Positions 20,623-25,905 of a DNA stretch of 32,000 nucleotides are shown piece after piece. The notes below the pieces were generated by a model. The model had not been told where the DNA came from. It saw only the letters and a program-made list of their open reading frames with translations, and made no database searches. Made by a program: the position numbers and the translations under genes. The stretch is from Candidatus Saccharimonadota bacterium (lineage in GTDB: Bacteria > Pseudomonadota > Gammaproteobacteria > Enterobacterales > Enterobacteriaceae). Each line of letters begins with the position of its first letter. Positions within the stretch are counted from its first letter, which is position 1. The stretch lies in NCBI GenBank assembly GCA_049942765.1, contig CP188086.1, positions 390,001-422,000 of the forward strand, in the 5' to 3' direction.

Positions 20623-22170
20623 TTAATTTTTTAAAATTTTTATTTTATCTTTTAATTCTTCTAAACAATAAATGGAATTAAATATTTTAATTAAAGCTTG
20701 TATTACAGTATTAATCATATTATTTGATATACTTGTTCCATAAAAAATACGACCAAAACATTCTATTTCAATATCAACCTGTGAAGAAGTATTTGAATTT
20801 ATTCCATTCGAATTCAAATTAAATTTTTTTAATTTAATAGGATATTTTATAATATGATTTAAAGTTGAATAGACAGCATCAATTGGATTGGTATATAACT
20901 TAAATGATTTATTGATAATTTTATTTCCACACATTAAAGAAATACTACCTTGAGAACATTTATCAAAATCAGATGTAATACTAATATTTTTTAAAACAAA
21001 ATTTTCTCTTTCTATATTATATATTTTAGAAAATGCTAATATTTCCAATTCATAATCAAATATTTGACCTTTTTGATCTGCTAAATTTAAAAATGAATTA
21101 TATAATGTATCTATATCATAATCATCATTACCATAACCCATACCAAACATACAATTTCTAATAGCAGCACGTCCTGATCTTGATGTTAAATTTAAAGAAA
21201 CTTGTTTTAACCCAACGCTTTCAGGAAAAATAATTTCATAATTACTTCTATGTTTTAATACACCATCTTGATGAATACCAGAAGAATGAGAAAAAGCATT
21301 ACTACCTACAATTGCTTTATTCATTGCAATAGATATTTTACAAATTTCACTCACTAATCGACTATTAGAATATATTTCTTTGATTTTAACATCCGTATAC
21401 ATTTTTAATAAATCTGATCTAGTATTAATAGCCATTACCACTTCTTCTAAAGCAGCATTACCAGCTCGTTCACCAATACCATTAACAGTACATTCAATTT
21501 GACGAGCTCCAGATTGAACCCCACTAATAGAATTTGCTACAGCCATACCTAAATCATCATGACAATGTACTGAAATAACTGCATCATCAATATTTGATAC
21601 TTTCGAAATCAATAATTTTATTATTTTTCCAAATTCTTCAGGAATGGTATATCCAACTGTATCTGGTATATTAATTGTAGTAGCTCCAGCTTTAATCACT
21701 TTTTCAATAATCCAACACAAATTATCAATGGAAGTTCTTCCAGCATCTTCACAAGAAAATTCAACATCATCAGTATATTTACAAGCACGTTGAACAGATT
21801 TAACAGCCATATCTATAATTTCTTCAAAACTTTTATTTAATTTATGTTCAATATGTAATCTAGATGTACCTAAAAATAAATGAATTCTGAATTTCTCAGC
21901 AAATGACATAGACTCTGCAGCAACATCTATATCTTTATTTATACAACGAGCTAAACCACATATCCGACTATTTCTTATTACTCTAGATATTTCTTTTACA
22001 GATTTAAAATCCCCAGGAGAAGATACAGGAAAACCAACTTCAATTATATCAACACCTAATTTTTCTAAAGATAATGCTATAGTTAGCTTTTCTTTTACTG
22101 TCAAACTAGATCGTAATGATTGTTCACCATCCCTCAATGTTGTATCAAAAATTATAATTCTTTCTTTCAT
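20623..22170 (-). CDS. leuA: 2-isopropylmalate synthase
   Basis: [51 protein letters not shown] and [12 protein letters not shown] match E. coli LeuA. An AGGGT Shine-Dalgarno lies 5 nt upstream of the ATG. Confidence 0.96.
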
Positions 22171-22488
22171 ATTTACCCTATTTTAATTCTATAAATTTAT
22201 AAAATACAACATTAATATATTATTCTGTATTAAAATATTTAATAACAATAATTAATTAAAACATTACAATATTCTAATTTTACTTATTTTACACTACAAA
22301 TAATTTAATAAAAACTAAATAATAAGTGTATTTTTTATTGTAAACAATGTAACCATCATATAAAACCAATGAACAATGTACACTACAAAAAAATTAAGTT
22401 TATAATTAAAATATCTACTATTATAGTTAATAACCAATAGACTACAATAAAAAAAATTCTCACTAAATTCAAATTTTTAAAATATTTC

Positions 22489-22517
22489 AGAGATTCAGTA
22501 CAAAATACTAAATCTCT
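22489..22517. other. G:C-containing hairpin in the leuD-leuA spacer (11 bp with one C/A mismatch, 5-nt loop)
   Basis: agagatt-c-agta-caaaa-tact-a-aatctct. It lies 262 nt downstream of leuD and 319 nt upstream of leuA on the - strand. Confidence 0.5.
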
Positions 22518-22778
22518 AAAAATACATAAAAATCATATATAATATAATATACAACATACATAATATAGAATATTTATAACAATATGTTTATATAACAGAT
22601 AATATAACACATGATAAAATCATAAAAATAATATTGAAAACCATATAATACATTCAATATATATTAATATATTTATGATTACACAATCATAGACAACAAA
22701 AAACCAAACATTTATTTTTATCTTTTTAATTAATTTAAAATATATATTAATTAAATTGATAAATTTATAACAATAAAT

Positions 22779-23387
22779 TTATGTTCGAATAAAAAAACTA
22801 GGTATAGATTTTTCATAATGTTCTATATCACTCTTACGTTTCATAGTTAAATCAATACTATCTAATCCATGTAATAAACAAAATTTATGAAACTCAGAAA
22901 TGAAAAATGTATATTCTTTGTTATCAATCTTTAATTTATTATGTAATAAATTAATATTACATTTAATACCAATATGTTGTGTTACTATTGAAAATATAGT
23001 ATTAATTTCTGATTCTGTTAAAGTAATGAGTAACAAATGATTATTAAAACTATTATTATAAAATATATCAGCGAAACTAATAGCTATAATAACTTTAAAT
23101 CCATAATCTTTTAACGACCATACTGCATGTTCTCTAGAAGAACCACAACCAAAATTATCACGAACTAATAAAATTGTAGCATTTTTATAACATTCATTAT
23201 TTAAAATAAAATTTTTATTAATTTTTTTACTACAACCATTTAAAAATCTCCAATTATAAAATAAATGTTTACCAAAATCTTCTTTAGTAATTTTCTGTAA
23301 AAATTGTTTAGGAATAATTACGTCAGTATCAATATTAGACATATCTAATGGTACTACAATACCATTATGTTCTTTAAACTTATCCAT
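22779..23387 (-). CDS. leuD: 3-isopropylmalate dehydratase small subunit
   Basis: HNGIVVPLDMSNIDTDVIIPKQFLQKITK, NFGCGSSREHAVWSLKDYGFKVIIA and SFADIFYNNSFNN match E. coli LeuD. Confidence 0.95.
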   Translation of the reverse strand: MDKFKEHNGIVVPLDMSNIDTDVIIPKQFLQKITKEDFGKHLFYNWRFLNGCSKKINKNFILNNECYKNATILLVRDNFGCGSSREHAVWSLKDYGFKVIIAISFADIFYNNSFNNHLLLITLTESEINTIFSIVTQHIGIKCNINLLHNKLKIDNKEYTFFISEFHKFCLLHGLDSIDLTMKRKSDIEHYEKSIPSFFIRT

Positions 23388-23395
23388 AATATTAA

Positions 23396-24808
23396 TTATT
23401 CTCTTTTTAATTTAATTTGTCTGACATCAATAAATTTTCCAGAAATTGCTGCAGCAGCTGCCATGGAAGGACTAACTAAATGTGTTAAACCACCTCTACC
23501 TTGTCGACCTTCAAAATTTCTATTACTTGTTGATGCACATCGCTCTCCAGAATTTAATTTATCATCATTCATCCCTAAACACATAGAACAACCAGGTAAT
23601 CTCCATTCAAAACCAGCATGTATAAAAATTTTATCCAACCCTTCCATTTCAGCTTGTTGTTTTACGTTCTGTGATCCTGGTACTACTATAGCTTGTACTG
23701 TAGAATGTACACGTTGATCAACAACTATAGAAGCAGCTAATCTTAAATCTTCTATTCTAGAATTGGTACAAGAACCTATAAAAACCTTATCAACTTTTAT
23801 ATCAATTAATTTCATACCAGGTTGTAATTTCATATACTCAATAGCATATTTTGCAGATTCCCTATCTGCTCCGTTAGCAAACATATCTAATGTTGGTATT
23901 CCTTCGCTAATAGAACAAACCTGTCCGGGATTAATCCCCCATGTTACTTGAGGCTCTATATTACTAATATCTATCACAATCGATTTATCATAATAAGCAT
24001 CCACATCAGAATATAAAGTTTTCCAAAATGTTATAGCTTTATACCAATTATCACCTTTAGGTGCAAAATCTTTACATTTTAAATAATTATAGGTGATTTG
24101 ATCAGGGGCTATGAGAGCAGATTTTGCACCCATTTCAATTGCCATATTACATATAGTCATTCGTTCCTCCATACTAAATCGATCAATTACAGAACCCATA
24201 AATTCAACTACATACCCTGTTCCATAAGCAATACCTAATTTTCCTATAACATATAAAATAACATCTTTTGCTGTAATACCCACACCTATCGTCCCTATTA
24301 ATTGAATCTTCATAGTATTAAAACGTCCTTGTTTTAATGTTTGTGTAGCAAATACATGTTCTACTTCAGATGTTCCAATACCAAATGATAAAGCTCCAAA
24401 TGCCCCATGAGTAGATGTATGAGAATCTCCACAAACAATAGTCATACCTGGTAATGTTAAACCTAATTCAGGTCCTATTACATGAACAATACCTTGTTTA
24501 GAACTATTTAAATCATACAAAGTAATATTAAAGTCATTACAATTATTAATTAATGCTTCCATTTGTAATTTAGCCTGCACACCTGAAGCATCTATTGATG
24601 AACTAACAGTAGATACATTATGATCCATAGTAGCAATAGTTTTATTACATTGACGAATAATTCTATTTTTTTTTCTTAATCCAGAAAATGCTTGAGGAGA
24701 AGTAACTTCATGAATAAAATGCAAATCAATATACAATAAAGGAGATTCAATTTTATTATCATATACTATATGTTGATCATATATTTTTTGATATAAAGTT
24801 TTTCCCAT
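23396..24808 (-). CDS. leuC: 3-isopropylmalate dehydratase large subunit
   Basis: [76 protein letters not shown] and [12 protein letters not shown] (the aconitase-family Fe-S ligands). Confidence 0.96.
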
Positions 24809-24810
24809 AA

Positions 24811-25905
24811 TTAATCCCTATTTTTTAAATAAAAAGCTATCCTACTGCCCATTTCTTGAGTAGTTACATAATCATGATTACCCAATAATAAATCAAATGT
24901 CTTATATCCATCTGATAATGTTGTATTTACAGACCATTCAATATCATCAGCAATAGAAAATAACTGAAAACTATACCTAAACAACATAGCAATAGATAAA
25001 ATTAAAGCAATTGGATTAGCAATATTTTTTCCAGCAATATCTGGAGCGGAACCACCTGCTGGTTCATACAAACCAAAATTACTACTATTTAAACTAGCAG
25101 ATGGTAACATACCAATCGAACCAGTTAACATTGCACATTCATCAGATAAAATATCTCCAAATAAATTTGAAGTTAAAATAACATCAAATAATTGAGGATT
25201 TTTTATAATTTGCATACAAGCATTATCTATATATAAATGCGATAAAACGATATCAGGATATTCTTTCGATATACGATTCACTACTTGACGCCATAAAATT
25301 GAAGTTTCTAATACATTAGATTTATCAACTGATACCAGTTTTTTTTTTCGATTTTGTGCTAACATAAAAGCCATTCTAGCAATCTGCTCTATCTCATGTA
25401 TATAATATACAGCTGTATCAAACGCATACTCACCTATATTATTTATTTTCCTACCTTTAGGTTGACCAAAATATATTCCACTCGTCAGTTCTCTAACACA
25501 AAGGATGTCAAAACCTTGATTAGAAATATCAGAACGAAGAGGTGATAAAAAAGATAATTTTTTATGTAATTTAGCAGGTCGTAAATTAGAAAATAAATTA
25601 AAATGTTTTCTTAATGGTAATAAAGCTGCTCTTTCAGGCTGTTCATTATAAGGGATATTACTCCATTTAGGACCACCAACAGAACCAAATAAAATAGCAT
25701 TAGATACACTACACCCCTTTACAGTATGTAAAGGTAAAGCTGTTCCAAATTTATCAATCGCAATACCACCTATATCATATTCCTTAGTGTATATATTTAA
25801 TAAATATTTTTTTTTAATTACATCTAAAATTTTATATCCTTCATCCATAATTTCAGGACCGATTCCATCACCAGGTAACACTGCAATTCTATAATGCTGA
25901 TTCAT
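24811..25905 (-). CDS. leuB: 3-isopropylmalate dehydrogenase
   Basis: [60 protein letters not shown] and [14 protein letters not shown]. It lies 2 nt upstream of leuC. The coding strand carries an in-frame A10 tract (25339-25348). Confidence 0.96.

Follow-up and report, generated by a model that had tools for sequence, protein, structure and literature searches.

How did the leucine biosynthesis genes on the chromosome of an aphid symbiont, Buchnera, come to be arranged as leuB-leuC-leuD-leuA, with a long spacer ahead of leuA and with truA and secA as neighbors? The question is raised by a stretch of 32,000 nucleotides (contig CP188086.1, positions 390,001 to 422,000, hereafter the window) in which the four genes occupy positions 20623-25905. 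The answer favored here, to which we assign a probability of about 0.7, is that the leuBCDA block of a leucine plasmid (pLeu) of the B-C-D-A type was transferred as a unit to the chromosome between truA and secA. It is the comparison of gene order on plasmids that decides between this and other models of origin. The block, its spacer, its junctions and its flanks are as follows.

truA: 26133-26914, minus strand; upstream flank of the block (TIGR00071, 208 bits), frameshifted at a poly(A) run near 26252-26264
truA-leuB gap: 25906-26132, no strand; upstream junction of the block
leuB: 24811-25905, minus strand; 3-isopropylmalate dehydrogenase, 364 amino acids, first gene of the block (TIGR00169, 479 bits, cut-off 353)
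leuC: 23396-24808, minus strand; isopropylmalate dehydratase large subunit, 470 amino acids (TIGR00170, 767 bits, cut-off 560)
leuD: 22779-23387, minus strand; isopropylmalate dehydratase small subunit, 202 amino acids (TIGR00171, 236 bits, cut-off 116)
leuD-leuA spacer: 22171-22778, no strand; 608 bp, 14.3% G+C, no detectable gene or RNA family
leuA: 20623-22170, minus strand; 2-isopropylmalate synthase, 515 amino acids, last gene of the block (NF002084, 780 bits, cut-off 748)
leuA-secA gap: 20031-20622, no strand; 592 bp, 11.5% G+C, downstream junction of the block
secA: 17430-20030, minus strand; downstream flank of the block (NF009538, 1165 bits)

The leucine gene block and its source

Buchnera from Eriosoma harunire has in the leu block its only chromosomal cluster for leucine biosynthesis, which provides the aphid host with leucine. 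The LeuA and SecA proteins of the window are 100% identical to those of Buchnera aphidicola (Eriosoma harunire), whose chromosome measures 627,315 bp, and the LeuA identity confirms the link to Buchnera that had been drawn in a preliminary description of this DNA, made from its letters and open reading frames (ORFs). The block is not extrachromosomal; it is embedded in that chromosome, with truA and secA as chromosomal flanks. CP188086 was assembled from Nanopore and Illumina data, no plasmid is reported for E. harunire, and an independent Logan assembly of SRR33632139 carries the same arrangement and the same flanks on a 29.6-kb contig. The order is therefore no assembly artefact.

All four products are intact and lie above the curated NCBIfam equivalog cut-offs (4/4), and LeuA, with Pfam matches to PF00682, PF22617 and PF08502, retains its C-terminal LeuA_dimer regulatory domain. 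The ORF coordinates agree to the base with the order and strand first described, including the gaps of 2 nt between leuB and leuC and 8 nt between leuC and leuD. The placement of the block between secA and truA, away from ilvIH, is upheld by the family scans, with ilvI and ilvH (25-1958) about 18.7 kb distant and 13 genes between. In G+C content and GC skew the block matches the neighboring genes, which indicates long residence.

Gene order on leucine plasmids

Leucine plasmids of Buchnera occur in two cyclic orders. On those of Aphidinae strain APS (NC_002253.1), Neophyllaphis and Nipponaphis the genes run A-B-C-D with the replicon between leuD and leuA, and on those of the Thelaxinae, Cerataphidini, Mindarinae, Greenideinae and Lachninae they run B-C-D-A with the replicon between leuA and leuB. 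The second type is known in the literature as 'leuBCDA, yqhA, repA', and its published origin position is between repA1 and leuB. The distance between leuD and leuA varies among the plasmids.

Ceratoglyphina pLeu: leuD-leuA gap of 44 bp
Mollitrichosiphum pLeu: leuD-leuA gap of 52 bp
Kurisakia pLeu: leuD-leuA gap of 53 bp
Cinara cedri pLeu: leuD-leuA gap of 131 bp
Mindarus pLeu: leuD-leuA gap of 193 bp
Tuberolachnus pLeu: leuD-leuA gap of 329 bp

A motif, ATGCAAAATWA, is found exactly once per plasmid in 10/10 of the pLeu and pBBp1 plasmids examined; it is non-coding and stands beside a repA gene wherever annotated maps show its position. The second of these plasmid kinds, pBBp1 of the Fordini (2,399 bp), consists of yqhA-repA2-repA1, and the pLeu of Kurisakia reads leuB-C-D-A-yqhA-repA2-repA1. 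Identity between the two is 82% for YqhA, 59% for RepA1 and 42.5% for RepA2, and the origin motif follows repA1 in both. The colinearity of these replicons means that pBBp1 corresponds to a Kurisakia-type pLeu minus its leuBCDA block, which sits in the Fordini chromosome. There, in Buchnera from Kaburagia (CP140040.1) and Meitanaphis (CP140042.1), leuB-C-D are followed after 446 or 470 bp by leuA, and the cluster lies between yggS and ruvX; the Fordini chromosomal order has been published as 'ADCB' (PMC11188193).

The preliminary description had proposed the insertion, as B-C-D-(rep/yqhA)-A, of a circular plasmid of the order leuA-B-C-D-replicon that had been cut between leuA and leuB, the spacer then being the fully eroded replicon. 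Its plasmid origin as such agrees with the comparisons made here and with the published account, in that PMC3229713, citing Sabater-Munoz 2004, describes the chromosomal leu genes of the Pemphiginae as a back-transfer from plasmids. The opened circle is not supported, since B-C-D-A is already the standing order on the pLeu of at least five other aphid lineages. Circles of the layout required, with the replicon between leuD and leuA, do exist in the Aphidinae, Neophyllaphis and Nipponaphis, but the B-C-D-A plasmids with gaps of 44-53 bp demonstrate that the order arises with no replicon in the leuD-leuA gap.

The position of leuA also differs within the Hormaphidinae, where Nipponaphis has leuA upstream of leuBCD together with ibp and a 1.2-kb gap, and Ceratoglyphina has leuA 44 bp downstream of leuD. 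On plasmids, leuA has therefore shifted relative to leuBCD more than once.

The same site in other Buchnera

The symbionts of E. grossulariae and E. lanigerum carry thrA, hpt, pcnB, dksA, truA, leuB, leuC, leuD, a gap, leuA, a gap and secA, with leuD-leuA gaps of 576 and 418 bp and leuA-secA gaps of 632 and 665 bp, respectively. The comparison of gene order to which the preliminary description had looked for a decision has thus yielded two Eriosoma relatives that share both order and site, in addition to the B-C-D-A plasmids. Identity among the three Eriosoma symbionts is only 64-66% for LeuA and 69-70% for SecA, and an arrangement that keeps the same order and site despite such divergence is therefore old.

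In Buchnera from Rhopalosiphum padi the corresponding genes are dksA, truA, mrcB, secA, mutT, coaE and guaC, with no leu genes in the truA-secA interval. The Eriosoma leu block occupies the slot of mrcB (PBP1b) of Aphidinae Buchnera. Elsewhere in the window (2122-4784) rsmH is followed, after a 461-bp gap, by ftsA, and ftsL, ftsI and the mur and ddl genes are absent there. The position of the block in the mrcB slot fits the absence of ftsI, mur and ddl there, and this 627-kb Buchnera seems to have lost its peptidoglycan synthesis genes.

Phylogeny of the leu genes

Neighbor-joining trees (300 bootstraps) were built from 474 columns of LeuA and from 985 columns of LeuB+C+D. In both of them Buchnera forms one clade with 100% support, within which chromosomal and plasmid copies are intermixed, and the three Eriosoma symbionts likewise group at 100%. 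As far as the trees resolve, leuA and leuBCD share a history, a point on which the preliminary description had made its proposal depend, and there is no sign of foreign acquisition. One high-scoring candidate from the LeuA search turned out to be an unrelated free-living bacterium and was set aside.

Search for plasmid remnants

The preliminary description suggested that the leuD-leuA spacer could be the eroded remains of plasmid replication genes. Twenty-six RepA1, RepA2, YqhA, Ibp and Rep proteins from eleven plasmids were compared by tblastn, with no low-complexity filter, with 13 gaps, namely the leuD-leuA spacer and both junctions in the window, in the two other Eriosoma symbionts and in Kaburagia, and the secA-guaC gap of the window as a control; each gap was scored against 200 dinucleotide-preserving shuffles of itself. 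The leuD-leuA spacer gave no RepA1, RepA2, YqhA or Ibp signal above shuffles in any of the four genomes (4/4), its scores falling at or below the shuffle means, and in blastn it had no match to any plasmid. With spacer and both window junctions alike giving no RepA1, RepA2 or YqhA signal above shuffles, the eroded-replicon interpretation of the spacer is not borne out. The leuA-secA gap, the place to look for remains of a replicon or of mrcB, gave no Ibp or MrcB signal either in tblastn against shuffles, and blastn of it against plasmids returned only low-complexity matches, to Stammera and Arsenophonus. No remnants of MrcB, MutT or CoaE were found in the window gaps, the leuD-leuA spacer being included for MrcB. 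As a positive control, the method recovers the TruA C-terminus in the supposed truA-leuB gap.

A lone lead was a YqhA-like frame (amino acids 20-82, 'Y-NFI') directly downstream of leuA in E. lanigerum, at contig positions 11601-11813 on the plus strand, which is the leu strand. It contains three in-frame stops, its 24.6 bits are matched by 3/200 shuffles, which falls short of significance over 39 tests, and the window has no counterpart. The stretch sits where a Kurisakia-type donor would place yqhA. Searches for Leu protein fragments in the gaps produced marginal short matches only, among them a 24-amino-acid LeuC-like stretch in the window spacer (0/200 shuffles, one of 52 tests).

Where the window has the 818-bp guaC-secA gap (16612-17429), R. 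padi Buchnera has mutT and coaE. Of these, coaE is intact in E. grossulariae, amounts to 48 amino acids in E. lanigerum and is undetectable in the window, which shows how quickly pseudogenes disappear in this lineage.

Origin of the block

In the favored explanation, transfer from a plasmid, the order B-C-D-A would have been inherited from a pLeu with its replicon (repA1, repA2, yqhA and origin) between leuA and leuB. The insertion of the block at the mrcB position would predate the divergence of the three sequenced Eriosoma symbionts, the replicon segment having been left behind or lost. The 608-bp spacer would on this account descend from the leuD-leuA intergenic region of the plasmid itself, having grown longer as many other A/T-rich spacers of this genome have, and would contain no decayed rep gene.

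A number of points weigh against this explanation. The direction of transfer, from plasmid to chromosome, is presumed from parsimony and the literature together with the shared order and the pBBp1 colinearity. The break point would lie inside the replicon, but it is seen at neither junction; in the window the leuA-secA and truA-leuB gaps give no Rep or YqhA signal above shuffles, and the origin motif ATGCAAAATWA is absent from the other chromosomal leu loci and has only two-mismatch matches, at chance level, in the window. In the chromosomal B-C-D-A clusters the leuD-leuA spacer measures 418-608 bp, in every case more than on the plasmids (44-329 bp), and something may once have been there. 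The deep nodes of the trees are without resolution (Eriosoma with Kaburagia at 45% for LeuA and 5% for LeuBCD), the taxa of neither gene order form a clade, those with B-C-D-A included, and with nodes so weak a shared donor plasmid is not demonstrated. The remnant tests also have low power, as traces of coaE and mutT have gone within the genus. Taken alone, the missing rep signal is weak evidence, and the conclusion rests on the comparative maps.

Among the alternatives, the one that survives best, though it is unlikely, is a single integration in the common ancestor of the Eriosomatini and Fordini with later relocation of the block in one lineage. The two lineages have the order in common, in both of them the leuD-leuA spacer exceeds 400 bp and is longer than that of any plasmid, and in the LeuA tree Kaburagia joins Eriosoma with weak support, the 45% already given. 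Support for that grouping is, however, only 5% for LeuBCD, the spacers show no orthology signal, Buchnera chromosomes are otherwise highly syntenic, the symbionts of the Eriosomatinae have been reported to be non-monophyletic, and the persistence of pBBp1 in the Fordini fits a direct plasmid origin.

It is harder still to credit a local rearrangement, in which an ancestral leuABCD stood at the site and leuA moved past leuD by transposition or by duplication and deletion. The repeated repositioning of leuA relative to leuBCD on Buchnera replicons (A-BCD in Nipponaphis, BCD-A in Ceratoglyphina) speaks for such mobility, as might the marginal LeuC-like stretch in the window spacer, which no shuffle equaled but which is one of 52 tests. 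Yet A-B-C-D is found at truA/secA in no genome examined, mrcB is at the site in Aphidinae Buchnera, the Fordini B-C-D-A at another site would need the same event twice, and there are no clear leu gene fragments in the gaps. The local transposition or inversion of leuA that the preliminary description had named as its own alternative likewise has no support, there being no relative with A-B-C-D at the site. Least probable of all is the opened circle, which can point to the length of the chromosomal leuD-leuA spacers (418-608 bp) and to the ability of erosion to erase genes fully over such time, but which is disfavored by the lack of any RepA1, RepA2, YqhA or Ibp signal in the four spacers, of an origin motif and of a plasmid blastn match, would have more than 75% of a real replicon segment (2.4-3 kb) deleted in every lineage, and would need the identical break independently in the Fordini.

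Transcription of leuA

The leuBCD genes are almost certainly one transcription unit. Between them and leuA lies one further feature.

Candidate hairpin: 22485-22521, minus strand; 17-pair stem and 3-nt loop, followed by a T-rich tract

Some 258 nt separate the hairpin from leuD on its upstream side and some 315 nt from leuA on its downstream side. It has a minimum free energy of -19.2 kcal/mol (z = -6.5; 0/200 shuffles fold as well) and is the only terminator-like site in 19900-26400, with arms that are unique in the window. Judged from its sequence it is a candidate leuBCD terminator or a candidate structure of the leuA 5' untranslated region, and it is not conserved in the other three leuD-leuA spacers compared. 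It may be that leuA has its own promoter downstream of the hairpin and is transcribed separately, a prediction with which the hairpin and the 608 bp of spacer are compatible. Promoter-like sites are not enriched (59 found, 65.7 expected from shuffles), Rfam gave no family in 19900-27400 at E<=1, and the tRNA scan was empty. A leucine leader or attenuator upstream of leuA was not found, spacer ORFs being at most 40 amino acids long and none having consecutive Leu residues. In strain APS leuABCD is reported to form a single transcription unit, in which leuA nonetheless differs in its response to leucine starvation and is partly decoupled in expression.

Neighboring genes and spacers

The upstream flank, truA, truly ends near 26133, past the poly(A) frameshift, which shortens the truA-leuB gap from 319 bp to about 227 bp. 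The tblastn match to TruA is split into two frames, with the frameshift at ...GLKKK... and the C-terminal 44 residues in the other frame to about 26133. In E. lanigerum truA is likewise interrupted (gene call of 773 bp), and in E. grossulariae it is intact. The frameshift may be a real slippage-prone site or mark a decaying gene, and not merely be a Nanopore homopolymer error.

Nine of the 22 intergenic gaps in the window are at least 380 bp long (461, 384, 406, 818, 592, 608, 419, 448 and 578 bp), with 7-20% G+C. For a Buchnera genome, long A/T spacers are unusually plentiful, and a gap of 608 bp does not stand out among them. Long gaps occur also without gene loss relative to R. padi, as between aceE and guaC (406 bp versus 230 bp). 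Spacer DNA is saturated, and because any two A/T-rich gaps align at about 62% identity, DNA comparison of spacers is uninformative.

The rest of the window holds ilvI, ilvH, rsmH, ftsA, ftsZ, erpA, mtn, speE, speD, lpdA, aceF, aceE and guaC on one side of the block and its flanks, and dksA, pcnB and hpt on the other. The place taken in R. padi Buchnera by panC and panB is occupied in all three Eriosoma symbionts by pcnB (28244-29464 of the window, plus strand), with dksA and hpt on either side, and the Eriosoma symbionts have no pantothenate genes there.

Significance

Buchnera is usually described as recombination-poor. Its chromosomes are known for gene-order stasis, to which the leu and trp genes are an exception, recording the gain and re-absorption of amplification plasmids. 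Both chromosomal back-transfer and the B-C-D-A order are already published, the current picture is unchanged, and the locus is a further example of the known plasmid-to-chromosome transfer and no new type of rearrangement. What it adds is a well-defined Eriosoma case with a conserved site, the B-C-D-A order and the mrcB slot. No description of the E. harunire locus or of its position in the mrcB slot was found in the literature surveyed, a survey outside which the key 2004 paper lies. Together, the Eriosoma locus and the Fordini block with pBBp1 form a before-and-after pair for studying the integration of plasmid DNA.

Transfer from a B-C-D-A plasmid can be carried one step further, in an elaboration that is possible but less likely than not. 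The block may have entered independently in the Eriosomatini (at truA/secA, with mrcB being lost) and in the Fordini (at yggS/ruvX), leuA then gaining a terminator and promoter context of its own in the lengthened spacer (22485-22521). If the entries were independent, plasmid DNA in Buchnera would use decaying genes as landing sites, and leuA, which encodes the first and feedback-sensitive enzyme, could be expressed apart from leuBCD after the loss of plasmid copy-number control. In general descriptions, Buchnera has neither recA nor mobile elements.

Comparison with known leucine gene clusters

Among the closest counterparts of the window block are the B-C-D-A pLeu of Kurisakia, the Cerataphidini, Mindarus, the Greenideinae and the Lachninae, which share with it the order, the location of all genes on one strand, the tight packing of leuB-C-D and membership in the same Buchnera clade. 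They differ from it in being circles of 6-7.7 kb whose leuA-leuB interval holds repA, the origin motif and in some cases yqhA, and in a leuD-leuA gap of 44-329 bp as against 608 bp. The chromosomal cluster of the Fordini (Baizongia pistaciae type) resembles the block in order, strand, long A/T spacer, chromosomal location, lack of adjacent rep genes and aphid subfamily; its site is yggS/ruvX and not truA/secA, and a residual plasmid, pBBp1, is known for the Fordini.

The Aphidinae pLeu (APS, NC_002253.1) has the same four genes with the same function, but in the order A-B-C-D, with repA1, yqhA and repA2 between leuD and leuA, and on a multicopy plasmid. The leuLABCD operon of E. coli encodes orthologous enzymes, and the LeuA of the window keeps the C-terminal regulatory domain; the E. 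coli operon differs in its A-B-C-D order with leader and attenuator and in its place beside leuO and ilvIH. In four small-genome Buchnera, including that of Phyllaphis fagi (Calaphidinae/Phyllaphidinae-type), leuA-B-C-D stands between minE and tsaB. That cluster is, like the block of the window, chromosomal, single-copy and at a lineage-specific site that is not the enterobacterial one, and unlike it stands at another site and follows the canonical order A-B-C-D, leuA and leuB being about 90-130 bp apart. Three groups of Buchnera thus carry their leu genes at three sites, and the chromosomal position is therefore lineage-specific.

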